The notes below the pieces were generated by a model. That model worked only from the letters and a program-made list of their open reading frames with translations, searched no databases and was not told the origin of the DNA. This document shows, one piece after another, positions 1 to 14,915 of a stretch of 64,000 bases of DNA. This stretch comes from Candidatus Poribacteria bacterium. Its GTDB lineage: Bacteria > Poribacteria > WGA-4E > WGA-3G. Both the position numbers and the translations under genes were made by a program. The stretch is taken from contig OZ242029.1 of the NCBI GenBank assembly GCA_965205015.1, forward strand, positions 1,632,001-1,696,000, written 5' to 3'. The stretch's first letter is position 1. The number at the start of each line of letters is the position of its first letter.

Positions 1-1390
1 ACATCTTGAGCGTTGTGTGGATGTCGCGTTGTTGTTTTGGAATTAGAAAGGCGCGCGGTGGCTCATTCTTTCCTTTCGCTATAGCATTGAGCCCCATCTT
101 GTAAAAGTTTGTCTTCAGCGTTACCCGATGTTCCGCAGCGAAAGAGAGAATTGAGAGTGCCGCTGCCTTCTCATACTCTACGATATCTCGCAGTCGCCAC
201 CAGCCGCCGGGCCACGGTTCAGGAAAATTTGTACGGAGTGTGTATTTATCAAGCCCGCGCCGGTATCCTTTCAAAGTGTGATGCGGTTGGAAAATTGGCG
301 TTGCTATCTCCACGCGTGCCGCTTCCGTCAAAATGCCTACCATATTGTGGCGATAGGGGACCGTCCGAAATCCGCCGTGCCACCATGTGTCGTAGACGGC
401 ACTCGAAAGCACGCCTGTAAACCCGTCGCTCGTCAAATCGAAAGCGAGTTGCGCACCGATGAGCGAAAGCGTCCGTTGTAAAAGCGGCGGAATATTCGGG
501 TTGACCGGCTCAAAATAAGGGGGTATCACGAACCGGGGTCCTCGGTAACTCATCTCATGCACATCGTAGACAACCTCTGGAAACCACGCCTCATAAAGTA
601 CCTGCGTCAGTATCTGCGTCTCTATCTGGGTCAGCATAAACCAATCGCGGTTGTTATCGTGTCCCGTATATTTATGATACAACCACGGGATTTCTGACCC
701 TTCATAAGGTGTGCCGACAGTGCGATTATACCAATCCACCACGATGTCCAAACCGTCCGGATTCGCCGAGGGGATGAGCAGAATTATCACATTTTCAAGA
801 ATCTCTTCGAGTTGTGGTGTTTCAGTAGTTGCGAATTGATGTACAAGTTCCATCGACATCTGTGAAGAGGCGATCTCTGTAGAATGCAAATTACAATTAA
901 TCAGCACCACCGCTTTACCCTCTGCCGCAAGTGCATCCAATTCTGCCGCACTGTTTTCATTGATCGGTGCATTGGGCAGCGCGAGTCGTCTTTGAATCTG
1001 TTGGTAGTGTGCCACATTCTCTAAATTCTCTGGTGCGGAAATCAACAACATCAGAAAATCGTTGTCCTCTGTCGTTTTTCCAAGTTCTTCTAACAGCACC
1101 CGATCTGAATTCGCTGCCACATGCCGCATGTAATCAGAAACTGTCTGCCATCCTGCGACCTGATAGTCGGAACCGACTTGGAACCCGAGCACCTCTTCAG
1201 GAGTCATCAGTTGCGCATGTACCGGTTCCTGTAGCAACACAACGAACATTGTTATTATTAGCAACACACTGCGTATATGCCATAGGAGTATAGTATCGAC
1301 CTCCTTGTAGGAGCGAGCGCCGACTCGCGATGTTTTTCGTTGATAAAACGGAGGTATGAAATTGGCGTGAAAGAAGCCAGAGATTTTCAT
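1..1390 (-). CDS. M14-family zinc carboxypeptidase-like exported protein (3' end runs off the window)
   Basis: Manual translation from ATG 1390 (RBS AAGGA): MKISGFF...LLIITMFVVLLQEPVHAQ...NCNLHSTEIAS (HxxE)...PSANPDG...GHDNNRDWF...YDVHEM. Open to position 1 and absent from the ORF track. Confidence 0.85.
   Translation of the reverse strand, partial: MKISGFFHANFIPPFYQRKTSRVGARSYKEVDTILLWHIRSVLLIITMFVVLLQEPVHAQLMTPEEVLGFQVGSDYQVAGWQTVSDYMRHVAANSDRVLLEELGKTTEDNDFLMLLISAPENLENVAHYQQIQRRLALPNAPINENSAAELDALAAEGKAVVLINCNLHSTEIASSQMSMELVHQFATTETPQLEEILENVIILLIPSANPDGLDIVVDWYNRTVGTPYEGSEIPWLYHKYTGHDNNRDWFMLTQIETQILTQVLYEAWFPEVVYDVHEMSYRGPRFVIPPYFEPVNPNIPPLLQRTLSLIGAQLAFDLTSDGFTGVLSSAVYDTWWHGGFRTVPYRHNMVGILTEAARVEIATPIFQPHHTLKGYRRGLDKYTLRTNFPEPWPGGWWRLRDIVEYEKAAALSILSFAAEHRVTLKTNFYKMGLNAIAKGKNEPPRAFLIPKQQRDIHTTLKM
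1305..1331. repeat. GTAG-type REP-like palindrome inside the 5' end of the peptidase CDS
   Basis: gtaggagcgagcgccgactcgcga, read in frame as SRVGARSY on the minus strand. Confidence 0.55.
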
Positions 1391-1752
1391 GATAGGTTCC
1401 TTTTCTATGGAGGTATGCGGCTTAGTTTTTTTTTATATAAATACGCTGTCCTCAGCGGATTTTGTTATTTATGGTGAATTATGAAAATAAGTTTACATTA
1501 GAAGCGAAAACCCGTACCCCTGCTGGCGAGGTTTCCTAACCTCACCAATGTAAACGTAATTGTACACTTTACTATAGTATAATCACAGCCTGTGACTATG
1601 TCAAGTGAGGGGATTCAATTGTCGGTTTTCTATCCGTTGGGTGGGATGTCGCGATTGGGAGGGGCGGAGATCGGAGTTCCCTCCTACAAGAATGGCAGTC
1701 GGCAGTCAGCAGTCAGTAATATGAACTAAATAGCCCTGATGAGCCACATATG

Positions 1753-3112
1753 GTCACTTACCCCCATTTTTTTCTGAAGGTTTGTGGTGAAAGGTTTTTG
1801 TTGTAAAAAGTGTGAGAAAGTCAGTGGGTTTATGATAAAATACCTCCTTACGGCAACCGTTTGTAATCGAGTTTACAAAACATGTAAGGAGGTATTTTAT
1901 GAAAAAGAGATACCCAAAACGGGTAAATCCAGAAACAATGATAGCACGTTTTGGAGAAATCTTCAAGTCTGTTGGTATGAAAAAACCGGTTTTTCGGAAT
2001 CTGGTGTTGGTCTTGATAGCGATCAGTGTTGCCCCGACGTTTCGGATCAATGAAATTGCGTCGCGTTTGTCGCTCGTCGTCAAGCGGGAAAAGTCGAAAC
2101 AGAAAAGGTTTCTGCGTTTCCTTGACACCCCGTTGCCTGTGGATGCGCTGAAACGTGCTTGGTTTGTGTCGGTTGTAGGTTGGTTTTCCAAGGATGCCAA
2201 CGCTCATCTGTATTTGCTCGTTGATGAGACGTCTCTGATTGCCGGGTGGAAAGCACTTGTTGTTTCGATCCCGTTTCGGCATCGTGCGATCCCTGTCTTT
2301 TGGTTCATCTATAGCGATCAACAGCTTCACGAGGGTATCTATAAGAGTCATAATGAAATCATCCAATACTTCTGTGTTCATGTTTATCAAGAGGCTTTAG
2401 GGGTCGTGTCGCGGCATCAACAACGACCTGTTCTGGTGTTTGACCGTGGTTTTGGGCGTGCGCGATACGTCATCAAGTTTCTCAAGGCACGGGATATTGC
2501 GTTCGTGATGCGTGTTGCGAGGCATGTCGGTATCAGGCATGATGGGAGTCTGAAGAAACTTGATGACCTTGAAGCGGGCTGGTATCCGTATATCCTTTAT
2601 CAGTCGCAGGAGCAGATACCGCTTCAACTTTATATCCTCAGAGACGGTGCCTTTAAAGACCCGATGTATCTTATCTCAAATCGCCTCAGTGGACATCAGA
2701 TACATCACTGTTACAAAAGACGCATGCAGATTGAACACGGGTTCCGAGATATAAAGTCGTGCTTCGGCTTTGGCAAACTCGTCTTGAAAAAACCGACACA
2801 AACGCGTCTGGATGTTCTCTGGCTGTGTGCCTGCTTGGCTTATGGATTGGTGTTTATCAGTTATGAGAAGGTCGCCTCTACACACTGGCAGAAGGCACAT
2901 AATAGTAATAACAGAAAAACTTTTTCTGTTATTACTATTATCAAACGCGTGCTCACCGACTTATGGAACCAACATTTTCTCATCTCCTTTTTCACGCAGA
3001 TACATTCCAGGGGCGATCCGCCTTGGGAAACCCTTGGAAACTGACTTTCTCGCATACAAACCTGATGGCATCAACTACAATCTACTCTCGAAAAAAAATG
3101 GGGGTAAGTGAC
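1753..3112 (+). mobile_element. IS4-family insertion sequence (1360 bp)
   Basis: 21-bp TIR gtcacttacccccattttttt (1753-1773; inverse at 3092-3112) and 10-bp target duplication gccacatatg (1743-1752, 3113-3122). Confidence 0.95.
1899..3044 (+). CDS. IS4-family DDE transposase
   Basis: LLVDET, VFDRGF and YKRRMQIEHGFRDIK (YREK signature); lies between the TIRs. Confidence 0.92.
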   Translation: MKKRYPKRVNPETMIARFGEIFKSVGMKKPVFRNLVLVLIAISVAPTFRINEIASRLSLVVKREKSKQKRFLRFLDTPLPVDALKRAWFVSVVGWFSKDANAHLYLLVDETSLIAGWKALVVSIPFRHRAIPVFWFIYSDQQLHEGIYKSHNEIIQYFCVHVYQEALGVVSRHQQRPVLVFDRGFGRARYVIKFLKARDIAFVMRVARHVGIRHDGSLKKLDDLEAGWYPYILYQSQEQIPLQLYILRDGAFKDPMYLISNRLSGHQIHHCYKRRMQIEHGFRDIKSCFGFGKLVLKKPTQTRLDVLWLCACLAYGLVFISYEKVASTHWQKAHNSNNRKTFSVITIIKRVLTDLWNQHFLISFFTQIHSRGDPPWETLGN

Positions 3113-3262
3113 GCCACATATGCACTTGACTTTTTTCTGATTTTGTGGTATTGTAATAGGTGAAATATTTTTAGGGGCGCAACGCGCCGTAGTGTACGTT
3201 ACATTCGGCATTCATGGCAAAAAGAACGCTCTTTTATCTACGTCAGGAGGAAGGGGAAGATA

Positions 3263-3280
3263 ATGAAGGGCATTGTCTCA
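3263..3280 (+). pseudogene. Probable original 5' end (MKGIVS...) of the HEAT-repeat lipoprotein gene, cut off by the tnpB element
   Basis: Purine-rich RBS aggaggaagggg then ATG 3263. The element left-end hairpin follows immediately and the signal peptide continues after 4652. Confidence 0.55.
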
Positions 3281-3343
3281 CAATCCCACTGCTTTAGCTG
3301 TGGGTCAACCCCCGTAACGCCCGTGCTGGTGTCAAAAAAACAT

Positions 3344-3372
3344 TTGCAATTGCCTTAGAAATGTGGTATAAT
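3344..3372 (+). promoter_or_regulatory. sigma70-type promoter of tnpB-1
   Basis: TTGCAA-N17-TATAAT with extended -10 TG. Confidence 0.7.
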
Positions 3373-3376
3373 TACA

Positions 3377-3464
3377 ATATCTCGTTGGCAAGCATTATCA
3401 GCGTTACCGCTTGGTAACGTGCTTGCCTCCCACTGATAAGGGGATAAATCGAGATACGAGATAT
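3377..3464 (+). ncRNA. Structured pseudoknotted 5' leader RNA, copy 1
   Basis: P1 atatctcg/cgagatat; P2 ggcaagca/tgcttgcc; hairpin cgttacc-gctt-ggtaacg; pseudoknot ttatcag/ctgataa; ccc/ggg stem. Confidence 0.75.
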
Positions 3465-3471
3465 ACCACAA

Positions 3472-4564
3472 ATGGCACATAAATCCCATAAGATAGCACT
3501 TCGGGCTACACCCAAGGAAGACGCATGGTTTCGCAGTCAATGCGGTTATGCGCGATTTGCGTCTAACGCTGCTCTCTCTGATTTTAGAGGCGGCTTAGAT
3601 GCTGATATATTTTATTCAGGCATTGATCTCAATAATCGCTTTAATCAAAGGAAAAAAAGCGTATGAATGGACGAAAGCACAGGATCAACGTGCTGCGTTA
3701 TATGCTATTAAAAACCTCACAGGAGGTATAAACCGCTGGAAGGATAAGATCAGTGGATTCCCAAAGTTCAAAAGACGCGGGCATAGGTTATCCTATACCA
3801 CAGACGAACAATCAGTAAGAGTAGAAGGAAAGCGTATCAAGTTGCCCAAAATCGGTTGGGTAAAGATGTTTCAAGAGTTGCGTTTTGAAGGTGAGATCAT
3901 CCGTGTTACCATATCCAAGACGGCACATAGGTGGTTTGTCTCTATCACCGTTGACACAGGAACACCAACCCCCCCACGTGATATACGTGGACTCCCTGTT
4001 ATCGGCGTAGACGTAGGTATCAACTCACTTGCCACCCTTGATACAGGTAAACACTATGAGAACCCAAGACCTTTGAAACGCTATGAGCGAAAACTTGCGA
4101 CAGAGCAGCGCAAGTTAAGTCGTAAGAAGTTTCTATCCAACAATTGGTATAAGCAAAAAGAGAAAGTCGCGAAGGTTCATTACAAGATTGCTTGTATCCG
4201 AAAGGACGCGCACCACCAAGCGACCACAGAGATTGTGAATACGGCGAGTGCGATTGGCATAGAAACCCTGAAAGTTACGAACCTGCTCAAGAACAGGAAA
4301 CTTGCCAAGACATTATCAGATTCAGCCCTTGGCGGTTTCCTTGAGAAACTCAAATCCAAAGCAAAAGTGCTTGGGATACCGCTCAGAGAAGCCCCCCACT
4401 TTTTTGCTTCGAGTAAAACGTGTAGTAGTTGTGGGTATGTCAAAGACGAACTATCGTTATCGAAGCGTGTGTTTCACTGTGATTGGTGCGATACGAAAAT
4501 AGACAGGGACCAAAACGCTGCGATAAATCTCAAGAAGCTCGCCGTGGGCTACACGGAGAGTTAA
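3472..4564 (+). pseudogene. tnpB: TnpB RNA-guided endonuclease, frameshifted in an A7 run (~3652-3658)
   Basis: ORF 3472-3666 carries the N-terminus. ORF 3599-4564 carries GFPKFK, VIGVDVG, IGIETL, Zn finger CSSC...CDWC and DRDQNAA. Removing one A fuses them. Confidence 0.85.
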
Positions 4565-4608
4565 AACGCTTGTGGAGTTTGTGTAAGACCTCCACAGGGA
4601 GGCTACGA

Positions 4609-5844
4609 ATGAAGAAACAAGAATCCCACGACTTTAGGCGTGGGAGTATCAAAAGGGTTGTGATTATTCCACTGGTTGTCTTACTGCTTGCGGGTGTCGG
4701 TTGTGAGACAAAGCAAAAGGGTCCGAGCAATCTATCTGTAGGCAGAAGTAAATTGATTGACAGCGGTAACGCCTTGGAGGCAGTTGACCACCTCGAAAAA
4801 GCTGAACAGGAAGAGGTCAATAAACTGGAACCCCGTGCTCTACTCGTTATCGCTTACTCTCACGGGCTTTCGACGGGAAGCGCAAGTAGTCACGGCGTTG
4901 AAGCCAAGTTCAAAAATCAACGAGCACAACGGATACAAGAACTTACCGAGGCTGAGATAAAGCAAATCCTACAAATTCTCAGCACGCCCTCGCGGGTCCA
5001 AAAAGATGGCTTACAGGCACTTGTGGACAAGGGACCTGAAGCATCGGTAATTATTCTCGACAGCCTCATCAAAGGAAGGTATCCGTCGCTTCATGCAAAT
5101 TTTACGGAAATGCTGATTCAGATAGGGACTGATGCTCTTGATTTGGTTTTAGCGAAGCTGACTGATGAAACGACGCCACCTGCTGTCAAGGTTAAACTCG
5201 TTCAGGTCCTCGCTGAGATCGGCGACGCGAAAGCCATAGATGCATTAAAAGCGGTTCAAAGTGGAACGAGTGAAGCGGGTTTGGCGATGGAAATTAACAC
5301 GACGCTCTATCAGCTGGGTGAGGAATCCTATAAAAAGGACATCATCGCCGGTTTAAGTCATAGTGATGTTGTCGTCCGACGCGCCGCTGCGAAAGCCATG
5401 GCAAATCTCGGCGATGTGGCATCCAAAACACTCATTGCAGGGTTAAAAGATACCGACTCTGAAGTCGTTGCATCACTTGTGGAAGCGCTCGCAGTGCATC
5501 GCGATGCTGACGCTGTCGATGAACTCGTAAATATTCTGACCGGTGGATTGAGCAAGGATCCGAAGCAAGCAGCGATTAATACACTCGACATTTATGGACA
5601 AAACAAGCTTGCGAGAGGCTTGGCAAAGCGCATTACAATGCTGCTCATTGGCGGAACTGTTAGTGAGGCAGACAATCGGCTCCATCTCGTTCAACTTCTG
5701 AAGCGGGAACCGTTTCTGAAGCAGATTCAGGTGACAGAATTGTACGACAACCTTGAGTTCAAGCTTTATGAATATCATAAAGAAAAAGAACAGAGCGAAC
5801 TCGTTAAAACGTCGCTTAAACAACTCCTTGATGCACTTCAGTAA
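4609..5844 (+). CDS. HEAT-repeat lipoprotein (paralog A); start codon supplied by the element right end
   Basis: Lipobox LLAGVGC; HEAT/PBS-like repeats (VVRRAAAKAMANLGD); ATG 4609 with AGGGAGG upstream. Confidence 0.75.
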   Translation: MKKQESHDFRRGSIKRVVIIPLVVLLLAGVGCETKQKGPSNLSVGRSKLIDSGNALEAVDHLEKAEQEEVNKLEPRALLVIAYSHGLSTGSASSHGVEAKFKNQRAQRIQELTEAEIKQILQILSTPSRVQKDGLQALVDKGPEASVIILDSLIKGRYPSLHANFTEMLIQIGTDALDLVLAKLTDETTPPAVKVKLVQVLAEIGDAKAIDALKAVQSGTSEAGLAMEINTTLYQLGEESYKKDIIAGLSHSDVVVRRAAAKAMANLGDVASKTLIAGLKDTDSEVVASLVEALAVHRDADAVDELVNILTGGLSKDPKQAAINTLDIYGQNKLARGLAKRITMLLIGGTVSEADNRLHLVQLLKREPFLKQIQVTELYDNLEFKLYEYHKEKEQSELVKTSLKQLLDALQ

Positions 5845-5888
5845 GTCTGTGATAGACCCAAGTCTAAAGACTTGGGCTTCTGCAATCG

Positions 5889-7100
5889 TTACGCAGAAGC
5901 ATTTGTGGATTTCAGAATCGGATGGTTGGATTCAACGGAGCAGCCTACGATCTTGTCAAACAAAACAATAGGACTTACAACCCCTAAGCCAAAGGAAGCT
6001 ATCCCTTCCTTAAGAATATTCAGCGCAGCGTTCTCGTCGCGGTCAAGGTGCGTATTGCAACTTGGACACGTCCAGTCCCTGTCTGCTAACGTGAGGTTTT
6101 GATTTTTATGTCCACAAACACAACAGGCTTTTGTCGTCGGAGACCACCGATTGATTTTCAGCACGGAGCGAATACGCTTATGAGACTGGTGCTTGAGTTT
6201 CCGCAGGAACTCACCAAACGCAAGATCCGAGACCTGTTTCCCCCACAAGCGTTTCATACCCGCAAGGTTCAGGTCCTCAAAGAACAGTATATCAAACTTA
6301 CGACACAGTTCTATCGCCAGTTTCCAATGGTGATCTGTCCGTTGGTTCGCCGTTTTCTTGTGGATACGCGCAACGGTCTTGCGTTCGCGTTCTTGGTTGT
6401 TAGACCCTTTGACCTTACGGGAATACGCCTTTTGTGCTTCCGCTAACTTTTCAGCGTTCTGTTTGTAGAACATCGGAGACGTATATCTATGACCATCACT
6501 GCCAATCAGAAAGTCCTTGATACCCATATCAAACCCTTCAGCTTTACCCGTCTTGGGTTCGATCTTGATTTCGGTATAGTCTTCTGTCAGCGTAATATAC
6601 ATATCTCCGAGGGCATCTCGTGTTACGTGAACTTCGATGATGTGTCCCTCGATTTCACGATGCAGGGCGAAGCGATACCAACGTCCATTCAGTCGGATTT
6701 TATAGGTCGGGTGATTTCTTTGGTTTTTCTGCTTATCCAACACTTTTTCAAGCTTGACCTGTTCACCCCGAAACGTCATCCCTTTGTGTTTCTTGCAAGA
6801 CTTGAACTTTGGGTGACCTCTGCCAAGGGTTTTCATTTCTCTAAAGGATTGTGCCAAACGCTTTAGCACATTTTGCAACGCCCAAGAGTAAGGGATATTC
6901 CAATGCTGATACTTCTCAAGTTTCTTCAGTTTCGTCAAATGTTTCGACAGTTTCACATACGAAAGTCCCTTACCATAGCGGCGGTAATATCGCATACAGA
7001 GTGCCAAAAAATGATTTTTCACAACGCCACAGATATTGCAATCGTCGTGCAAGTGACGCAACGTCTTATCCTTGAAAAGTTTATGGGTCGTGTTTCGCAT
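5889..7100 (-). CDS. tnpB: TnpB RNA-guided endonuclease, intact RuvC D-E-D
   Basis: GHPKFK, EGFDMG, FFEDLNL, CCVC...CPSC, DRDENAA. Confidence 0.93.
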   Translation of the reverse strand: MRNTTHKLFKDKTLRHLHDDCNICGVVKNHFLALCMRYYRRYGKGLSYVKLSKHLTKLKKLEKYQHWNIPYSWALQNVLKRLAQSFREMKTLGRGHPKFKSCKKHKGMTFRGEQVKLEKVLDKQKNQRNHPTYKIRLNGRWYRFALHREIEGHIIEVHVTRDALGDMYITLTEDYTEIKIEPKTGKAEGFDMGIKDFLIGSDGHRYTSPMFYKQNAEKLAEAQKAYSRKVKGSNNQERERKTVARIHKKTANQRTDHHWKLAIELCRKFDILFFEDLNLAGMKRLWGKQVSDLAFGEFLRKLKHQSHKRIRSVLKINRWSPTTKACCVCGHKNQNLTLADRDWTCPSCNTHLDRDENAALNILKEGIASFGLGVVSPIVLFDKIVGCSVESNHPILKSTNASA

Positions 7101-7106
7101 GGACTT

Positions 7107-7195
7107 TCAAGTCTCAAGTCTTTAACCCCTATACAGTGGGTGAGACCGACACGTAACCTTGCGGTTATGCTGTATATGTCGGTCCAACTTGATAT
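7107..7195 (-). ncRNA. Structured pseudoknotted 5' leader RNA, copy 2
   Basis: Minus strand: tcaagt/acttga; gaccgaca/tgtcggtc; hairpin taacc-gcaa-ggtta; pseudoknot tatacag/ctgtata; ccc/ggg. Confidence 0.75.
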
Positions 7196-7199
7196 TCTC

Positions 7200-7229
7200 A
7201 TTATACCACACTTTCGGACCAAATGTCAA
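7200..7229 (-). promoter_or_regulatory. sigma70-type promoter of tnpB-2
   Basis: TTGACA-N18-TATAAT on the minus strand. Confidence 0.75.
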
Positions 7230-7601
7230 GCAAAAAATGAACGCTTTGGTCCTTTCCAAGAGGGCGAGACTGTATCCCAAAGCTAAAGCATTGGGTTTTC
7301 GTCTCGGAAGTTTAGATAATTTGTTTCTTATCTGTCTGTACTTAAATTGTTGACAGAAAAATGTATTTATTTTAGAATATTCTTTACGTCAGTACTTGCC
7401 CAGATGTGTAATCCCTGTTTGGGAGGTTTGAATACGTTGTGATATGAAGAACCTACGGTTTTTCCTGCCAAACGCTACTGAAAAGTATTGGATCGACACT
7501 GTTTTATCTGTTTGCAAGTTGCGCACTATCTTCATGGAGTAGGCAACCGGCACGAACGGGTAAGTCTAATCGAGATTTCAGGAGGAAAAGAAAAACGGAA
7601 C

Positions 7602-8792
7602 ATGAAAAAACTTTTGCTGATATTACTACTGATAGGAGTCGTGAGTTTCGGCTGTCGGCAGGAACAGGTCATCACCCAACTTGAAGTGGGTAGGAGTAAG
7701 TTGTTAGACGCAGGGCTCACACTGGAAGCTGTCCAGCATCTTGAGAATGCTGAAAACGAAGAACAAAACAAAGTTGAACCTCGTGCACTCCTAATTATTG
7801 CTTATAGCCATGCTATTTCAACGGGCGCGGCAAGATTGCATAATGTGGAAGCCAGATATCAAACTGAACGTGATCGCCGTGTCGGTGAATTAGGCGAATA
7901 TGAGATGAAGAGGATTCTACATATCCTTGGGGAACGCCATAGGGTTCAGAAAGATGCCATGCAGGTTCTCGTTGATAAAGGGGCGCCCGCCGTGCCTTTC
8001 CTGTTAGAGGACCTCGTTAAAAACCGCTATCGCAACGTCCATGGTGACTTCGTTCAAATTTTGAAAGACATCGGTAGCCCGGCTATTAACGACCTCCTCG
8101 AGGCGGTTGGTGACAGCAAGACACCCGCTGCTGTGAAAATTCAACTCGTCCGTATCGTAGGAGATATAGGAGACGCATCCGCCATCACTAAGTTAGAGGC
8201 ACTCCATAATGCAACCCCTGATGAAGGGTTGAAGATGGAAATTAACACCGCACTCTATCATCTCGGAAACGAAGAGGCCGAATCAAAAATCGTTGAGGGC
8301 TTGACCCATGCGAACCCCGTTGTCCGACGCGCCGCCGCAAAGTCTATGATGTTCCTCAAAGAACACCCAACTGACATGTTGATTGATGCGCTTGACGATT
8401 CCGATGACACCGTGCGTATGGACATTGCTAAAGCGCTGCAGAAATATCCTGACGCGGGTGCTGTTGACGGTCTTGTCGCAATCCTCACAAACGGCTCAAG
8501 TCTCAATACGAAGCAAACCGCTATCGATACTTTGAACCTTTACGCCGAAAACGGACTCGCTGATGGATTGGCTGGACGTTTGATCGTGTTATTAGCGAAC
8601 CCTGAAGTTGTTGACCATGAAGATAGGCTCCGTATCGTTCAACTTCTCAAAAAACCTGCTTTGATAAAACAGATTCAGGAGGCTGACCAGTACGACAATC
8701 TGCCCCATAAGCTTGACGTTTACTTCAGGGAGAACGAAACCAACGATATGGTGAAAGACGCACTCAATGAACTCCTCCTTGTGCTTGAGTAG
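7602..8792 (+). CDS. HEAT-repeat lipoprotein (paralog B)
   Basis: MKKLLLILLLIGVVSFGC lipobox; colinear with paralog A (VGRSKLLD, EPRALLIIAYSH, LKMEINTALY, VVRRAAAK). Confidence 0.85.
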   Translation: MKKLLLILLLIGVVSFGCRQEQVITQLEVGRSKLLDAGLTLEAVQHLENAENEEQNKVEPRALLIIAYSHAISTGAARLHNVEARYQTERDRRVGELGEYEMKRILHILGERHRVQKDAMQVLVDKGAPAVPFLLEDLVKNRYRNVHGDFVQILKDIGSPAINDLLEAVGDSKTPAAVKIQLVRIVGDIGDASAITKLEALHNATPDEGLKMEINTALYHLGNEEAESKIVEGLTHANPVVRRAAAKSMMFLKEHPTDMLIDALDDSDDTVRMDIAKALQKYPDAGAVDGLVAILTNGSSLNTKQTAIDTLNLYAENGLADGLAGRLIVLLANPEVVDHEDRLRIVQLLKKPALIKQIQEADQYDNLPHKLDVYFRENETNDMVKDALNELLLVLE

Positions 8793-9042
8793 ATACTTTT
8801 AATTGTTCGCAAAGCGTTAAATGAGGGGTCTTTGTTTATTGAATGTTTCTCTTCTATCCGCCTGCGTGTTTTTGCTTGGGGTTTTGCTTGGGTGTTTCTG
8901 CGTATTTCTGCGTATTGTTGCAGGCTGCTGTCTTAAGATAATTGTCGTAACGGTAGCCCGTAAGCGTAGCGGAGGGCGGATTAACGTGTGGTTACCTTGA
9001 TATACCAATCCACCTGACCGACCTGCAAGGTAAAATTAAAAA

Positions 9043-10209
9043 ATGCAAAATTATCCAACGGGTATCAAGATTACCAAAGTTGAACAGGTTACCGTCGAAA
9101 TTGATCAACCTGCTATTGGTTGTAACTCCCGCGCAACGGAGATTCACCAACCGGATCCGAATGCGAAATGGAACGAACGTATCATCCGCATCTATACCAA
9201 CGATGGTACCCTTGGTTGGGGGACTGGCAGTTGGGGAGCGACAACGGCTGAAAATGCGGAAGGCGTGCTCAATCAAAACCCGTTTGACCTCTTAAACCCT
9301 GAGGACGGGGTTGTTGAAGAATTTCGCGGTCTTGAAAACGCCCTATGGGACACAATCGGCAAAATCCTTGAGAAACCTGCCTATCAGCTCATCGGTGATG
9401 ATGTTTTTTCAAACGGATTGCCCGCTTACGACAGCACTATCTATTTCAACGATCTCCTGTATGAGACAAAAGCCGAAGGACTTCAACGCATCGAGAATGA
9501 TGTCAAAAGTAGTCTCGCCAATGGGTTTACCGCATGCAAAATGAAAATCGGGCGCGGTAGCTATCTCATGGAACGCATGGCGGGACTGCAACGGGACATA
9601 GAACTCGTCCAACTTGCCCGTAGCACCGCAGGCGAAGGCTTCAATATCCTCGTTGATGCAAACAATGCCTACACCTACGATGAAGTCATCACCTTTTTGA
9701 ACGAAACGAGTGATTGTGATGTCTTTTGGATAGAAGAGATGTTTGAGGAAGAAGTTGAATTGTACCGCAACCTCAAAGCGTTCATCCAAGAAAAGGGATT
9801 GAAAACCTTCATTGCCGATGGCGAAACCCGTACGCGCGACCCGCTTGAATTCTATGATCCTTTCTTTGAGGCGGGTGTTATCGATGTCATTCAGCACGAT
9901 ATGAAGGGGCTTGGCGTTACTGGCTGGCGGCGACTTGCCGATATGGCTGCGGCGCACGGTGTCCGGTGCGCCCCTCATAACTGGGGGTCTCTTCTCGGTT
10001 TCTACCTCAGTCTCCAATTCGGCAAAACGATTCCCCATTTCCTCTACGGCGAAGTCGCAACCCTCACGAGCGATGTAATCGATACTTCTAACTACGTTTT
10101 CACCGGTGGAACGTTCACGGTACCGGATACCCCCGGACTTGGACTGGCGCTCAATGAAGATGTGTACGACGATCGCTACGCCGGAAAAGAGGACTGGCAG
10201 ATCAGCTAA
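9043..10209 (+). CDS. Mandelate racemase/muconate-lactonizing enzyme (enolase superfamily) protein
   Basis: KMKIG, VDAN, WIEE, ADGE, APHNW, PDTPGLG. Confidence 0.88.
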   Translation: MQNYPTGIKITKVEQVTVEIDQPAIGCNSRATEIHQPDPNAKWNERIIRIYTNDGTLGWGTGSWGATTAENAEGVLNQNPFDLLNPEDGVVEEFRGLENALWDTIGKILEKPAYQLIGDDVFSNGLPAYDSTIYFNDLLYETKAEGLQRIENDVKSSLANGFTACKMKIGRGSYLMERMAGLQRDIELVQLARSTAGEGFNILVDANNAYTYDEVITFLNETSDCDVFWIEEMFEEEVELYRNLKAFIQEKGLKTFIADGETRTRDPLEFYDPFFEAGVIDVIQHDMKGLGVTGWRRLADMAAAHGVRCAPHNWGSLLGFYLSLQFGKTIPHFLYGEVATLTSDVIDTSNYVFTGGTFTVPDTPGLGLALNEDVYDDRYAGKEDWQIS

Positions 10210-10355
10210 TTCTTTACTGAGGATAACGCCCGGTTCCTCCATAAACGGGACGCGTATGAAGGCATCCGGTTTCTAAAAGCGACCCGCCTCTACCTCTCCC
10301 CCAAATGCTTTGCTGTCCCCGACTAATTGAGCTACAACCCATTCCATCACCCCAC

Positions 10356-10385
10356 TCGGTAGGCGAGGTTTCTAACCTCGCCGGT
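10356..10385. repeat. GTAG-type REP-like palindrome (related copy ~1524-1548)
   Basis: cggtaggcgaggtttctaacctcgccgg versus ggcgaggtttcctaacctcacc. Confidence 0.6.
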
Positions 10386-10539
10386 TCTCCGTTTAAGGTA
10401 TCTCCACTGTGATACCACCCAACGCCTAAAGGCGTGGGCTTCGGTTTCATCGCAACTGCGGTTTTCGCTCAAGCGTCCACCGTCTTACTGTCGCTCCACC
10501 CGCGGGTTCTTATTCCGAATCAGATCGGTTTTATCTGGT

Positions 10540-11652
10540 TTAGGTCCAGGGTACCCCAACCCGCAAAATGTTTCGCGCAGCGTTGATATCCCGATCATGG
10601 TACGAACCACAGTCAGAACACGTCCAATATCGGTCTGAAAGCGTTAGGTCTTTGTTGCGATAGCCACAATCCGAACAAGGTTTTGTGGTCGCTGCCCAAC
10701 GCCCCGCTTTCAATAAGGTTTTACCGTATTTGGCACACATCCAGCGAAGTATCAATGAGAACTCACCAAAAGCGAGGTCAGAGACTTTGCGACCCCACAG
10801 CCGTTTCATACCCTCAAGGTTCAGCGTCTCAATCGCAATCTTATCGTATCTACGCACAAGCCGAAGTGCCAACTTGAAGAACCAGTCGCGTCTTCTATTG
10901 GCTATATCCTTATTGACGCGTGCGAGGTGTCGTTTGGCACGAAACCAGCTGTTAGAAAGATACTGCTTACGAGAGAGTGCCTTGTTTGCGGAACGAATTT
11001 CATTGAGGCTTTGCTTGAAAAACTCCGGGGACGCTATCTTGATACCGTCTGAAAGCGTCAGGAATGTTTTCATACCGAAATCTGCCCCTGCCTCATGACC
11101 GGTCAATGGGAGTTTTTCGGAAGGTTCACAATCCTCACACGTCAGATACAAATAGTAGTCACCTACGGGATCACGCTTGATTGTTACAGTTTTTATCGTG
11201 CCTGTCCACTCACGGTGTTTCCAAAACGTAAATGACGTGTTTAGGCACTTGATATGAATGCGATTGTCTTCTATCTCATAACCGGCTTGCGTGAACGTCA
11301 ATGAGTTATACTTGTGTTGTGGCTTTATCTTTGGCTTGCCGACTTTGCGCGGTGATAACCCTTTCTTTTTCGCATCGAGGTAGTCAAAGAACTTGTCATA
11401 TCCAAGATGAATACGCTTGGCGACTTGTTGGATTACCTGACTTGGCAGTTGTTTCCAATGCGGTTGCGTCCGATGTTTCAACTTCGTTATATGCGCGCAG
11501 ATACGCCCAAACGAGGCATACTTGCCATAGATACGATAATAGCGTCTCTGCAATAAAAGCAAGTGGACATGCACGCCATGCAAGTCGTCAAGCAGATTCC
11601 CCATCTGTATGAGATTCGACTGATGATAGAACTCATATTTTTCGGTGTTCAT
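10540..11652 (-). CDS. tnpB: TnpB RNA-guided endonuclease, intact RuvC D-E-D
   Basis: AGADFG, IAIETLNL, CSDC...CSDC, DRDINAA. Confidence 0.93.
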   Translation of the reverse strand: MNTEKYEFYHQSNLIQMGNLLDDLHGVHVHLLLLQRRYYRIYGKYASFGRICAHITKLKHRTQPHWKQLPSQVIQQVAKRIHLGYDKFFDYLDAKKKGLSPRKVGKPKIKPQHKYNSLTFTQAGYEIEDNRIHIKCLNTSFTFWKHREWTGTIKTVTIKRDPVGDYYLYLTCEDCEPSEKLPLTGHEAGADFGMKTFLTLSDGIKIASPEFFKQSLNEIRSANKALSRKQYLSNSWFRAKRHLARVNKDIANRRRDWFFKLALRLVRRYDKIAIETLNLEGMKRLWGRKVSDLAFGEFSLILRWMCAKYGKTLLKAGRWAATTKPCSDCGYRNKDLTLSDRYWTCSDCGSYHDRDINAARNILRVGVPWT

Positions 11653-11658
11653 GGACGC

Positions 11659-11747
11659 TCAAGTATCAAGTCTTTAACCCCTATAGAGTGGGTAGGACCG
11701 ACACGTTACCAAGCGGTAACGCTCTATATGTCGGTCCAACTTGATAC
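11659..11747 (-). ncRNA. Structured pseudoknotted 5' leader RNA, copy 3
   Basis: Minus strand: gtatcaagt/acttgatac; ggaccgaca/tgtcggtcc; hairpin cgttacc-gctt-ggtaacg; pseudoknot tatagag/ctctata; ccc/ggg. Confidence 0.75.
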
Positions 11748-11751
11748 GCTC

Positions 11752-11780
11752 ATTATACAATATTTGGGGCGAAATGTCAA
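11752..11780 (-). promoter_or_regulatory. Consensus sigma70 promoter of tnpB-3
   Basis: TTGACA-N17-TATAAT on the minus strand. Confidence 0.8.
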
Positions 11781-12146
11781 GTCTTTTTTTGATAAAGGTT
11801 TGGACCTTTCCAAGAGAGCGGATTTTCATCCCAAACCTGAAGGATTGGGAAACCTTCAATCCGTCAATGCCCGTAAGATCGATCTCCCGATCGCGACTCT
11901 TCGTCAAAAGTGCTATATCTATCCTCTACCACTTTTCCCTGACAAGTCCCCCTTTTATGTGGTATAATTATTAACGTGAATTTGACTTCAGCAGCGTAGG
12001 TTGGGTTGAGCGGAACATCAAAAACCAAACGCTTATGACGCAGGAAATTTCCATTCCAAAAGGCTTGGATGCTCTGAAATTCCAGCGAAACCCAACACTT
12101 CAACTGCTTGTAGGGGTATATGAACGGAAAAAAGAAGGAGTGTATC

Positions 12147-12743
12147 ATGTATATCAAAAGATTGGCGTGTTTAATTTTGCCCTGTTTTATCTTCGCGTCT
12201 TTTTATGTTCCTAAAGTGCTGGCACAGGATATAGAAGTCACCGATCTCGAATCGAGGAGCGTTGTCGGCGATTACGTTGTCGGCGAGGAGGGACTTGAGA
12301 TAGGGAGCGTCTATCTCATTGACAGGGATTATTTCGTCAAGGATATGTCAAAAGAGTTGGAAGGCGCGACGTTTATCATGACGGCAATGGACGATGAAGG
12401 CTCTCAGGGTGCTGATTTCATCACATTTAGCGTTGATGTTCCTGTCGTCGTTTGGCTGGCTGCTGACAAAAGATGGGGGAGTCCGCCAAAATGGGCTTCA
12501 GACGGTGAAGGATGGGAAGAGCAACCTGATTATTTGGTGCAAACCAATGAGGAGGATACGAATATTTTCGTCCTTCGGAACAAGGAATTTCCCGCAGGTG
12601 ACATATCCCTCGGTGGGAACAACGATGCACCTGCGAACTTGGCGCCCATGTACTGGGTATTCCTAATGCCTGGTACCGGAGCGGCGGCTGTGGAGGCAAC
12701 GGACAAGCTCACGACGACATGGGGGAGATTAAAGAGCAATTAG
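12147..12743 (+). CDS. Exported hypothetical protein with C-terminal AVE..KLTTTWG motif
   Basis: RBS AAGGAG, signal peptide ending VLA-Q, C-terminus AVEATDKLTTTWGRLKSN. Confidence 0.8.
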   Translation: MYIKRLACLILPCFIFASFYVPKVLAQDIEVTDLESRSVVGDYVVGEEGLEIGSVYLIDRDYFVKDMSKELEGATFIMTAMDDEGSQGADFITFSVDVPVVVWLAADKRWGSPPKWASDGEGWEEQPDYLVQTNEEDTNIFVLRNKEFPAGDISLGGNNDAPANLAPMYWVFLMPGTGAAAVEATDKLTTTWGRLKSN

Positions 12744-12775
12744 TCGTGTGCTTTGCACCAGATTTGGGTGGTTCT

Positions 12776-13915
12776 ATGAAGAAGATTCTTGTCGCAATGA
12801 GCGGTGGCGTAGATAGTTCCGTTACCGCTGCCATGATGGTGGACGCAGGGTATGATGTCACCGGCATCACCATGCGCCTCGGCGCGCCCGATACCATCGA
12901 GGTAGAACCGGAACGTCCTAACTGCTGTTCGCTTGAAGGCATTGAGGATGCACGCCGCGTCGCCACGCAACTCGGCATCCCGTTCTACGGCGTGAATTAC
13001 GAAGACGCTTTCCGCGAACGGATTATCGACTATTTCGTGGAGGAATACCTCGTCGGTAGAACCCCCAGTCCCTGTATGGTATGTAACCGGGAGCTGAAAT
13101 TTGGGAGACTCCTCGACCTTGCCAAAACATTGGAGTGCGATGCAATCGCCACAGGGCACTATGCCCGTATTGAACAGCACCCAGAGACAGAACGCCATCT
13201 CTTACGCAAAGCGCGAGATGTCAGCAAAGACCAATCCTATTTCCTTGCCGCGCTCACACAGGAGCAATTACGCTGCGCGATGATGCCACTCGGTGAATAC
13301 ACGAAGGCTGAAGTCCGTGACCTCGCCCGAAAATATCAACTGCGAACGGCTGAGAAGATTGAGAGTCAAGAACTCTGCTTCGTTGCTGATACCAACTATA
13401 GGCGCTTCCTTCAAGACAGAGTCCCTGAGAAGATTCACGGGGGCGATATTATAGATGAAGAAGGCAATGTTCTCGGTAAGCATGACGGTGTACCGTTTTA
13501 TACCGTCGGGCAACGGCGTGGATTGGGTATCGCAGTCGGGAAACCGCTCTATGTAACGCAGCTCAACGCAACAGACAATACCGTTGTGGTCGGCGAATCC
13601 GATGCCCTTCTTGAGGACACCATGCATGTCGAACGGATTAACCTTATCGCCATTGAGAAATTGACAGAACCGATTCGTGCGCACGTCAAAATCCGATCCC
13701 GTGATGACGGCGGTCCCGCGACAATCACACCTATCGGCGACACAGAAGCAGTCGTGAAGTTTGATGAACCGCGCCGTGCGATTACCCCCGGACAGGCTAC
13801 GGTCTTTTACGATGGGGAATACGTCCTCGGGGGCGGTTGGATTGTAGACGCTCGCGACACCACTGGGGAAGGAGTTTGTAACCCCGAACCTACCCGCAAG
13901 GTCGATTTAAAATAA
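12776..13915 (+). CDS. mnmA: tRNA 2-thiouridine(34) synthase
   Basis: AMSGGVDSSV, GRTPSPCMVCN, ATGHYA, KDQSYFL, ESQELCF, YTVGQRRGLG, TPGQA. Confidence 0.97.
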   Translation: MKKILVAMSGGVDSSVTAAMMVDAGYDVTGITMRLGAPDTIEVEPERPNCCSLEGIEDARRVATQLGIPFYGVNYEDAFRERIIDYFVEEYLVGRTPSPCMVCNRELKFGRLLDLAKTLECDAIATGHYARIEQHPETERHLLRKARDVSKDQSYFLAALTQEQLRCAMMPLGEYTKAEVRDLARKYQLRTAEKIESQELCFVADTNYRRFLQDRVPEKIHGGDIIDEEGNVLGKHDGVPFYTVGQRRGLGIAVGKPLYVTQLNATDNTVVVGESDALLEDTMHVERINLIAIEKLTEPIRAHVKIRSRDDGGPATITPIGDTEAVVKFDEPRRAITPGQATVFYDGEYVLGGGWIVDARDTTGEGVCNPEPTRKVDLK

Positions 13916-13961
13916 GCTTGCGACAACGGAGCAAGCGACTCTTGGGAAAGGGGTGTCACAT

Positions 13962-14915
13962 ATGAAACCCACGTCGTTCTCCCGCAAGGTAAATTTAAAA
14001 ATTCTCTGTCTCCTCGGTCCCACAGCAGTTGGCAAAACGGAGATAGCCATTCAACTCGCACAACGGCTCAATGCCGAGATTGTCTCCGTCGATTCCCGCC
14101 AAATCTATCGGCAGATGGACATCGGCACCGCCAAACCTACCCCTGAAGAACAGCAGGCGGCACGGCATCACCTCATAGACTGCGTTGACATTTCCGAACC
14201 CTTCTCCGTTGCCGACTATCAATCCCTCGCAGACATAGCGATTGCCGACATCCAAAACAGGGGGAAGCGGGTGTTGCTCGTTGGCGGGGCAGGACTCTAT
14301 TTCCGAGCGATTGTTGATGGGTTGTTTGAGGGACCCGGAGCCGACCTTTCGCTCCGAAAACGGCTTGAGGCGGAAGCAGCACAACTTGGTGTTAATAACC
14401 TCCACAACCGGCTTCGAGCCTGCGATCCGGAATCTGCCCACCGAATCCATCCGAACAACCTCGTCCGTGTCATCCGTGCTTTAGAGGTCTATAAATTGAC
14501 AGGCACCCCCATGTCTAAACTCCAGCAGCAGTGGCATCCGGAAAAACAGCGGTATCCGTTCATCGCCTTCGGATTCACGATGCCGCGTGCGCTGCTATAC
14601 CGGCGTATTGAACAACGTGTGGATGTGATGCTTGCGAACGGGCTGATAGCGGAGGTTGAATCGTTGTTAGCGATGGGATATGAGCGTGAGACAGTCGCGC
14701 TCCAAAGTTTCGGCTATCGGGAGTTGATCGCGTATCTCGACGGAGACTGCACGTATCTGGAAGCGATCTCTCAGTTGAAACAAAACACCCGTCGATTCGC
14801 CAAGCGACAGTTAACGTGGTTCCGCAAGGACACCCGAATTGAATGGCTGGATCGGGAGTCAACACCTGATGTCATTTCGTATATTTTGAAAAAATTTAGC
14901 GGTGTTTCGCGTTGA
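13962..14915 (+). CDS. miaA: tRNA dimethylallyltransferase
   Basis: GPTAVGKT, DSRQIYRQMDIGTAKP, RVIRALEV, FAKRQLTWF. Confidence 0.97.
   Translation: MKPTSFSRKVNLKILCLLGPTAVGKTEIAIQLAQRLNAEIVSVDSRQIYRQMDIGTAKPTPEEQQAARHHLIDCVDISEPFSVADYQSLADIAIADIQNRGKRVLLVGGAGLYFRAIVDGLFEGPGADLSLRKRLEAEAAQLGVNNLHNRLRACDPESAHRIHPNNLVRVIRALEVYKLTGTPMSKLQQQWHPEKQRYPFIAFGFTMPRALLYRRIEQRVDVMLANGLIAEVESLLAMGYERETVALQSFGYRELIAYLDGDCTYLEAISQLKQNTRRFAKRQLTWFRKDTRIEWLDRESTPDVISYILKKFSGVSR

Follow-up and report, generated by a model that had tools for sequence, protein, structure and literature searches.

A covarying, pseudoknotted RNA leader in front of tnpB genes in Poribacteria

Here we consider a 64,000-nucleotide (nt) stretch from a Candidatus Poribacteria genome (contig OZ242029.1, forward-strand positions 1,632,001 to 1,696,000), called the window throughout, and in particular the RNA encoded in front of its tnpB genes. 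A tblastn search of the entire 64-kb window finds three such genes and no others. At all three sites, a leader of about 95 nt stands between the promoter and the tnpB start codon. Comparison with its many relatives makes it close to certain that this leader is a real structure, selected as such on the sense strand.

Two of the three genes are intact. Copy 2 (5889-7100, minus strand) encodes a protein of 403 amino acids (aa), P0001, that matches the Pfam families OrfB_IS605 (1e-17) and Cas12f1-like_TNB (3.2e-17). Copy 3 (10540-11652, minus strand) encodes a protein of 370 aa, P0002, that matches the same families (2.3e-21 and 4.6e-18, respectively). P0001 is 40% identical to P0002 and 28% identical to the product of copy 1, in which both domains are likewise found. 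Copy 1 (3472-4564, plus strand) is split into two open reading frames (ORFs), 3472-3666 and 3599-4564. Because an intact relative aligns across both, its residues 3-62 on the first ORF and 60-384 on the second, copy 1 has a single frameshift. The site lies near 3640-3660, and the change represents either a recent inactivation or an assembly error. The leader of this copy is intact, with seven of seven pseudoknot pairs formed.

Read from its 5' end, the fold begins with the 5' strand of a helix P1, followed by a U, the 5' strand of P2, a 7-nt strand, the P3 hairpin and the 3' strand of P2. Then come U or UA, the triplet CCC, an A, a 7-nt loop strand, GGG(G), the sequence (U/A)UAAA(N) and the 3' strand of P1. 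Here, CCC and GGG form a short helix, P4, and the pseudoknot is the pairing of the P4 loop strand with the 7-nt strand between P2 and P3. In copy 1 (leader 3378-3471, plus strand; 91.0 bits by the covariance model), the 5' strand of P1 occupies 3378-3384, P2 is 3387-3394/3420-3427, the pseudoknot strands are 3395-3401 and 3433-3439, the P3 hairpin is 3402-3419, and P4 is 3429-3431/3440-3442. The 3' strand of P1 is present twice, at 3450-3456 and at 3457-3463. In copy 2 (7097-7194, minus strand; 85.7 bits), P1 begins with 7193-7187, the pseudoknot joins 7176-7170 to 7136-7130, and the two P1 3' strands, at 7119-7113 and 7112-7106, precede an ATG at 7100-7098. In copy 3 (11649-11746, minus strand; 99.4 bits), the corresponding positions are 11745-11739 for the P1 5' strand, 11728-11722 and 11688-11682 for the pseudoknot, 11671-11665 and 11664-11658 for the P1 3' strands, and 11652-11650 for the ATG. 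A pattern for the core of the fold finds exactly these three sites in the window, where 100 shuffles give an expectation of zero, and the covariance model, R1, finds the same three sites only.

An earlier note on this DNA had claimed that the three leaders differ in sequence while their pairing is kept. The letters bear this out. P2 is GGCAAGCA/TGCTTGCC in one type and GGACCGACA/TGTCGGTCC in the other; the pseudoknots are TTATCAG/CTGATAA, TATACAG/CTGTATA and TATAGAG/CTCTATA; and P1 is TATCTCG/CGAGATA as opposed to (A)TCAAGT/ACTTGA(T), all at the positions that the note had given.

Three sequences are, of course, few, and the covariation was examined in larger sets. When one genome per species was searched with a 19-base pattern drawn from the 3' part of the leader, at least 114 loci came to light. 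Setting aside 5 of the 114 that lie too near the end of their locus, 109 instances with enough flank yielded the 103 distinct sequences of alignment A3, which is biased in that the search pattern fixed ACGTG, CCCACT, GGGG and TAAA. A further alignment, A5, holds all 42 model matches of one genome together with 14 weak matches from four others (50 distinct sequences). The covariation persists on this scale: in A3, 98.3% of 3303 cells hold standard pairs, compared with 83.8% after shuffling and 30-47% when the partner is slid by one to three columns. The pseudoknot is 98.6% paired and P1 is 95.1% paired. Each of the four middle pseudoknot pairs occurs in all four Watson-Crick types (one, for example, is AU 37 times, GC 28, CG 23 and UA 14). 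In A5, pairs fill 95.9% of cells, and both sides have changed in 30 of 32 pairs; these include all seven pairs of the pseudoknot, even though the pseudoknot was not part of the model. P4, invariant in A3, is found as CCU/AGG and CCG/CGG in divergent copies of A5.

The variation is extensive within a single genome. Across its 42 copies, one genome uses 30 different words for the pseudoknot strand, 15 for P3, 13 for P1 and 9 for P2. It can also be caught in progress: one pseudoknot pair is G-C in one copy (L074), G.U in two (L110, L114) and A-U in another (L046), all in front of TnpBs with near-identical N-termini. Cells with G.U outnumber those with A.C by 97 to 11 in A3 and by 96 to 22 in A5, and the fold is therefore one selected on the sense (coding) strand. 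Covariation support of this kind is as strong as that for established riboswitches and ribozymes.

In 63 elements, no third partner for the variable pseudoknot and P1 words was found in the element's own left-end region, coding sequence, or right-end and omega-RNA region. The 5' word of the pseudoknot recurs in the element tail in 1 of 63, compared with a shuffled mean of 1.4, and word counts equal the shuffled expectation. The fold is therefore self-contained. One candidate for a catalytic core was considered and rejected: CTGATAA of copy 1 resembles the hammerhead's CUGAUGA, but the same stretch is a hypervariable pseudoknot strand in the other copies.

Several departures from the common form were seen. 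Six copies (L002, L070, L119, L120, L174, L184) carry a G+C-rich insertion of about 25 nt in the loop of P3, a helix whose length is free, like that of variable stems in many other structured RNAs. Two leaders (L036:232-328 and L058:961-1057) are chimeric: their P2 5' strands, CAGGCA and CAGACA, face the 3' strand TGTCGGTCC of another type, and P2 is broken. Such mismatched halves point to copies having recombined with one another within the leader. Divergent subclasses with different P2 and P3 give only weak model matches of 30-40 bits (L124, L128, L130 and L133; L125 and L131). In L124 the pseudoknot is 8 bp long and the right shoulder may have 2 unpaired nt; in L125 and L131 a pseudoknot is not obvious. 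All of these subclasses keep two P1 3' strands and the ATG.

The 3' strand of P1 stands twice, head to tail, as ACTTGAT ACTTGAT, ACGTGAT ACGTGAA or CGAGATA CGAGATA. When P1 is closed with the second strand, 93.8% of cells are paired, compared with 95.1% when it is closed with the first, and six of its seven pairs have changed on both sides. At the most variable position of P1, the second strand gives AU 46, CG 39, GC 12 and UA 2; the first gives AU 43, CG 41, GC 12 and UA 2. The tandem is kept in divergent subclasses having different P2, P3 and pseudoknot sequences.

The two closures are also nearly equal in predicted stability. Each leader was folded twice, with one or the other P1 3' strand blocked, in a calculation that excludes pseudoknot and tertiary terms; for 88 leaders the mean difference so obtained is -0.24 kcal/mol (standard deviation 1.55), and 44 of the 88 lie within 1 kcal/mol. 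Between the second strand and the ATG there are usually 5 nt (8 nt in copy 1), and of the 105 copies that have an ATG, 94 have it 19-21 nt past the UAAA. A crude scan finds no Shine-Dalgarno-like word before the ATG in any of the three window leaders; the same scan finds one in 17 of 29 long ORFs of the window. What is newly recognised here is a duplicated P1 3' strand, both of whose members covary with the same 5' strand and close it at near-equal predicted energy, at a site beside an AUG that has no Shine-Dalgarno word. Of the three functions that the earlier note had put forward (a cis-regulatory switch, a ribozyme or a second RNA component), alternative P1 strands placed in tandem near the AUG favour the switch acting in cis, though they do not settle the choice.

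The promoters described in the earlier note as near the sigma70 consensus are readily found: TTGCAA-17-TATAAT, TTGACA-18-TATAAT and TTGACA-17-TATAAT. In copy 1 (3344-3372, plus strand), the -35 element TTGCAA (3344-3349) is separated from the -10 element TATAAT (3367-3372) by a 17-nt spacer with a TGn extension. Copy 2 (7200-7229, minus strand) has TTGACA at 7229-7224, an 18-nt spacer with TGn, TATAAT at 7205-7200, and a predicted start at A7193. Copy 3 (11752-11780, minus strand) has TTGACA at 11780-11775, a 17-nt spacer, TATAAT at 11757-11752, and a predicted start at A11745. Sigma70-type -35 and -10 elements, spaced by 17-18 nt, stand upstream of 97 of 111 related copies; among the 111, TTGACA occurs in 65, TATAAT in 41, TTTAAT in 26 and the TG extension in 77. 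Each of the window copies has the first A of P1 at 7 nt past the -10 element, the usual distance for a start. From this spacing, transcription is predicted to begin at the first base of P1, which would bury the 5' end of the RNA in a helix.

An outer helix, in which the extended -10 element folds back on the 6 nt before the ATG (GGTATA/TATACC, GGTTTA/TAAACC), was considered and rejected as inconsistent: GGTATA often stands with TAGTCC or TAGACC, and one copy (L088) has GGTTTA with TATACC. The complementarity is nevertheless present in some subfamilies, as in the window at 7210-7200 and 7106-7101, and absent in those with TAGTCC, TAGACC or AAATCC before the ATG. Where present, such pairing could block translation of read-through transcripts.

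How common is the leader, and what follows it? Of the 114 loci listed from the pattern scan, the titles name Poribacteria in 110 and 'uncultured bacterium' in one; three loci matched by chance (L001 and L019, without a model match, and L090, at 17.2 bits). In five whole genomes, with the best 150 candidates per genome scored, R1 finds at least 42, 31, 31, 24 and 6 matches. The search of Poribacteria genomes with a covariance model, proposed in the earlier note, shows that the motif recurs widely: 78 of 150 genomes sampled from the phylum have at least one match among at most the best 27 candidates of each, and the sample holds 150 listed matches and 938 further ones. No blastn match to the leader region of copy 3 was found in plasmid and phage collections, and of six pattern matches in IMG/VR, one (L184) is a true leader by the model.

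What follows the leader is, in every full-length case tested, the same kind of gene. Leaving aside ORFs shorter than 300 aa or cut by the end of a locus, 68 of 105 loci remain; with two genes of the window, 70 of 70 full-length downstream ORFs encode a TnpB with OrfB_IS605 and Cas12f1-like_TNB. These proteins are 18-94% identical to P0001 and have at least seven N-terminal types. At 10 loci of the Y1 transposase gene tnpA, no leader was found; a single match of 19 bits is noise. The fixed position between promoter and start codon, together with the exclusive link to tnpB, speaks for a function exerted in cis, on the mRNA of tnpB.

The leader is internal to a mobile element. A tnpB gene of the OrfB_IS605 type, similar subterminal hairpins at both ends, and insertion 3' of a TTAC-like target place its carriers with the IS200/IS605 family, whose members insert 3' of a short target. 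One type of hairpin, CCCAnnnn-TTTAG-nnnnTGGG, is found both 5' of each promoter, in the left end (LE), and 3' of each tnpB gene, in the right end (RE). Copy 1 of the element spans 3268-4652 (plus strand), with a left boundary that is approximate, its LE similarity to copy 3 running from GGGCATTG. Its LE hairpin (3285-3304) reads CCCACTGC TTTAG CTGTGGG; its RE hairpin (4625-4644) is followed by TATCAA (4647-4652), which ends the element. Copy 2 spans 5849-7314 (minus strand), its LE directly after the target TTATC (7319-7315) and its RE ending in TATCAC at 5849; the LE hairpin (7276-7295) reads CCCAATGC TTTAG CTTTGGG, and the RE hairpin (5857-5876) is followed by TCTATCAC, which runs to that end. 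Copy 3 spans 10409-11872 (minus strand), its LE after TTAC (11876-11873) and its RE ending in TATCAC at 10409; the LE hairpin (11830-11849) reads CCCAATCC TTCAG GTTTGGG, and the RE hairpin (10418-10438) is followed by TGGTATCAC, again to the end.

Relatives agree with these boundaries. In an alignment of 18 related copies, similarity starts directly 3' of TTATC, TTAC or TTACC, and the TTATC of copy 2 is common to related copies. A 1617-nt contig of a relative, from an RNA library (run X5), joins 5843 to 7326 with 15 other letters between and copy 2 absent. This junction has the look of an unoccupied site, and would fit both the boundaries 5849-7314 and a TTATC-like target.

That the elements are without tnpA, as had been surmised, agrees with a tblastn search of the window with seven Poribacterial Y1 transposases, which gives nothing below E = 0.2. 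In genomes G001-G005, matches to Y1_Tnp number 1-6 per genome, compared with 6-42 for the leader. By these sequence criteria the carriers are non-autonomous, tnpB-only elements. Of the 105 tnpB ORFs behind leaders, 16 have a premature stop before 300 aa; these stops and the few Y1 genes indicate a large, partly decayed population of tnpB elements mobilised in trans. The leader starts about 120 nt inside the left end, and the RE hairpins lie 1.2-1.4 kb away from it.

Between the LE hairpin and the -35 element lies a small conserved inverted repeat, CTTGGAAAGGnCCAAA (7260-7244 and 11814-11798, both minus strand), seen also in six related copies (L080, L092, L096, L065, L109, L030). It may guard against read-through as an insulator, or it may belong to the left end. 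Between elements 1 and 2, at 4596-5844 (plus strand), lies an ORF of 411 aa. Its ATG (4609) and a GGGAGG 7 nt 5' of that ATG both fall within the right end of element copy 1, its N-terminus resembles a lipoprotein signal peptide (...LLLAGVGC), and its stop at 5844 is 5 nt from the right end of element copy 2. It is bracketed by two converging elements, and an insertion sequence (IS) end may supply its start signals. The doubled P1 strand, the LE and RE hairpins, the frameshift of copy 1 and the size of the family were not part of the earlier note.

RNA libraries offer a further view of the leader. Nine RNA runs from three studies contain 9-12% of sampled words, and four of the runs were compared with the window. 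Contigs 88-99% alike cover the tnpB and leader of relatives in sponge, coral and marine RNA libraries. In two runs (X2, X3), the depth upstream of the predicted start (7182-7238) is 0 and 17.4, compared with 96 and 142 in the leader bin. Such data are assembled contigs, in which the starts and ends of RNA are not visible, an uncovered part is no evidence, and depth cannot rank the parts of a gene. The contigs that carry leaders are compatible with transcription, although libraries of this kind may contain DNA.

These observations suggest a mechanism, to which we give about an even chance: the leader would act in cis as the 5' leader of the tnpB mRNA, in which a bistable P1 gates access of the ribosome while the fold at the 5' terminus stabilises the transcript. 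Its effect would probably be to control the amount of nuclease made. Transcription from the element's own sigma70-type promoter would begin at the first base of P1, and the 5' end would be taken up in that helix. The RNA folds into P1, a coaxial P2-P3 arm and the short P4 hairpin with its CCC/GGG stem; the P4 loop pairs with the 7-nt bulge between P2 and P3 to make the pseudoknot, and the A-rich (U/A)UAAA leads the chain back to P1. The 5' strand of P1 can close the fold with either of its tandem partners. Were the first strand used, the second strand and the (usually) 5 nt before the AUG would be single-stranded, and a ribosome could load. Were the second strand used, the helix would usually end 5 nt from the AUG, and loading would be hindered. 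In either case, the compact fold at the 5' end would protect the long transcript of tnpB and omega-RNA from decay that depends on a 5' end. A protein, a ligand, or the kinetics of folding might shift the balance between the two closures.

A number of points weigh against this mechanism. The predicted start comes from the spacing of the promoter rather than from a mapped RNA end, and a contig of run X1 (record 8, 7056-7264) reaches 70 nt upstream of it; the extension could be read-through RNA or DNA in the library. Occlusion of the start codon is argued from distance alone, as there is no Shine-Dalgarno word to cover. Near-equal energies make two states possible, which is not the same as switching in a cell, and the contacts that those energies ignore, in the pseudoknot and the tertiary structure, may tip the fold wholly to one closure. 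Conservation of the leader greatly exceeds that of the TnpB proteins that follow it, and may reflect recombination of a 5' module, of which the chimeric L036 and L058 would be examples. Last, most of these data also agree with a role that is purely constitutive.

That constitutive role deserves a closer look. Here, a fixed 5' fold would stabilise the transcript and insulate the start codon, nothing would switch, and the second P1 strand would be an unstructured landing site. The 5' end is, after all, predicted to lie within P1; one promoter-plus-leader module serves TnpBs that are 18-94% identical to P0001, as a portable cassette might; no effector is evident; and P3 tolerates insertions of about 25 nt (L002, L070, L174). 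Yet a passive landing site needs no complementarity, and the second strand covaries to nearly the same degree as the first, has the first strand's spectrum of pairs at the most variable position, and does so in divergent subclasses as well. Because a passive fold leaves a maintained, covarying second strand unexplained, gating by a bistable P1 is favoured, and the constitutive role is judged unlikely. A self-cleaving ribozyme or processing signal, in which a permuted fold like that of the pistol ribozyme would cut the leader and set the 5' end of the mRNA, is more doubtful still. Ribozymes are often tied to mobile elements. The sequence near the three-helix junction is nearly invariant while the outer pairs covary, an A-rich strand lies 3' of the hairpin, and the topology fits the description of pistol by Harris et al., a topology that, by the abstract of PMC11300833, a hammerhead can adopt as well. 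Against this, no Rfam ribozyme model matches; the order of strands is not that of pistol; the 2-nt junction of pistol is absent, and the two pairs found in its place change on both sides in divergent copies (A5), and a G-C pair that adjoins the C-G gives way to A-U in 8 of 50. The RNA-library contigs list no site at which molecules begin or end, although contigs cannot show ends, and the tandem P1 strands would be left without a role.

Two further readings place the function of the fold elsewhere than in the mRNA. A stable RNA of about 90 nt, set free by release or by termination, might act in trans, binding a transposon or host protein, perhaps as a further RNA that partners TnpB or TnpA. The abundance of the motif is great (24-42 matches in four genomes), its sequence is conserved beyond the needs of pairing, and the foot of P4, CCCA...GGG, resembles that of the LE and RE hairpins, the expected target of the Y1 transposase. 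The leader of copy 1 is intact although its tnpB is frameshifted, but a single frameshift is too recent to test decay. Against action in trans, the pseudoknot words do not match the hairpin stems of the same element, there is no terminator 3' of the leader, and the fixed distance to the ATG in 94 of 105 copies argues for action in cis. Further, omega-RNA scaffolds and TnpBs behind the leader vary widely, so it is not a mimic of the element's own guide RNA. All this makes a role in trans quite improbable. Alternatively, the fold might form not in RNA at all but on the transposed top strand, as single-stranded DNA, during IS200/IS605 transposition. These elements do carry DNA hairpins at both ends, and the top strand of IS200/IS605 elements has the same sequence as the mRNA; the asymmetry between G.T and A.C therefore cannot separate RNA from top-strand DNA. 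But it is at the predicted +1 of a conserved promoter that the fold opens, and a constant interval separates its far end from the ATG; about 120 nt lie between it and the LE boundary, which puts it well past the LE hairpin expected for Y1 binding; and the G.U intermediates seen among close relatives are more in keeping with RNA than with DNA. We regard a DNA structure as highly improbable.

Why should a leader of tnpB be of interest? TnpB is the ancestor of Cas12 and a compact nuclease for genome editing. To our knowledge, little has been established about the natural control of its expression. That one promoter-plus-leader module stays nearly unchanged before TnpBs as far apart as 18-40% identity implies that the RNA itself is under strong selection. 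It is possible, though we would put it only tentatively, that the leader is a new functional class of RNA governing an RNA-guided nuclease, either a switch that responds to a protein or small molecule by sliding P1 between two identical registers, opening or closing the start codon, or a permuted pistol-like ribozyme. Were either true, the class would be new, and this would be the first dedicated regulatory RNA for TnpB, with at least a thousand copies across Poribacteria. Were the leader constitutive instead, it would still be a natural, portable part for expression. A closing helix with two registers beside an AUG without Shine-Dalgarno word is, in any case, a concrete and testable mechanism, and the leader illustrates that abundant structured RNAs in uncultured phyla are still uncatalogued.

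The catalogue in question is Rfam 15. At gathering score, its 4227 models give no match in the whole window or in 36 related loci (286 kb); at E<=10, positions 1-14000 give nothing at any leader; and a scan of 201 nt with lax filters gives nothing on the leader strand. The comparison with Rfam that the earlier note had advised thus brings no family to the leader, IS605-orfB-I (RF03065) included. That family is listed in Rfam 15 by the excerpted text of PMC11701678, and it has no match in the window or the 36 related loci. Nor do salivarius-1 (RF03030), RT-18 (RF03021), Mu-gpT-DE (RF03012), RT-13 (RF03017) or Transposase-2 (RF03015) match in genome G001 or G003. A motif named Poribacteria-1 was reportedly described by Weinberg et al. 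in 2017, from the same phylum, in a search for structured RNAs in intergenic regions, which would readily pick up a repeat as abundant as the leader. Identity of the leader with that motif is excluded only on condition that its model belongs to the 4227 that were scanned. The words Poribacteria, IS605 and orfB are absent from the main text of Weinberg et al. 2017 (PMC5737381). Literature searches, which were not exhaustive, turned up no prior description of a 5' leader of TnpB.

The first RNA with which to compare the leader is the omega-RNA, which extends over the 3' end of tnpB and over the element's right end and then takes its guide from the flank. Both are structured RNAs of the same kind of element, on the same strand. 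The leader lies at the opposite end, between promoter and ATG, and the positions of the RE hairpins (4625-4644, 5876-5857, 10438-10418) uphold the view of the earlier note that the two are distinct. Transposase mRNAs of insertion sequences provide another comparison: in IS200, a stem-loop in the 5' leader of tnpA covers the ribosome site, and in IS10 expression is subject to fold-back inhibition. As in these, the translation start of an IS gene adjoins a conserved helix in its own leader, and expression of a transposon gene is presumably restrained in cis. Unlike these, the gene is that of the TnpB nuclease, there is no Shine-Dalgarno word to hide, and a pseudoknotted domain of several helices with two closing strands stands in place of a single hairpin. 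Further, the nearer leader helix usually ends 5 nt before the ATG and excludes it, unlike leaders of the IS200 type. No Rfam model of an IS transposase leader matches here.

The nearest structural relative of the leader is the pistol ribozyme. By the excerpted text of Harris 2015 (PMC4604425), pistol has a short hairpin whose loop forms a pseudoknot of 6-7 bp with the strand that joins the left shoulders of two stacked stems; its helices covary and its core is conserved (PMC4604425, and the excerpted review PMC6154101). In the leader, likewise, a hairpin loop, that of P4, pairs with the 7-nt strand joining P2 to P3 (98.6% of cells paired in A3, with seven of seven pairs covarying in A5), the helices covary, and the core is conserved. 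The differences begin at the right shoulders, where pistol has a strictly conserved 2-nt GU junction and the main class of the leader a junction of length zero; the G and the U at this site are both paired in the leader (C-G in 102 of 103 and A-U in 103 of 103 in A3). The abstract of PMC11300833 reports that a hammerhead can take on the secondary structure and connectivity of pistol, and this topology therefore hosts more than one active site. The gene context differs as well: pistol is found with phage genes, the leader with tnpB. The order in pistol is hairpin, linker, P2, pseudoknot strand, P3, cleavage site and P2; in the leader it is P1, P2, pseudoknot strand, P3, P2, hairpin, A-rich strand and P1. 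Compared with pistol, the leader is thus a circular permutation, its hairpin moved 3' of P2, and its ends carried by an extra closing helix, P1.

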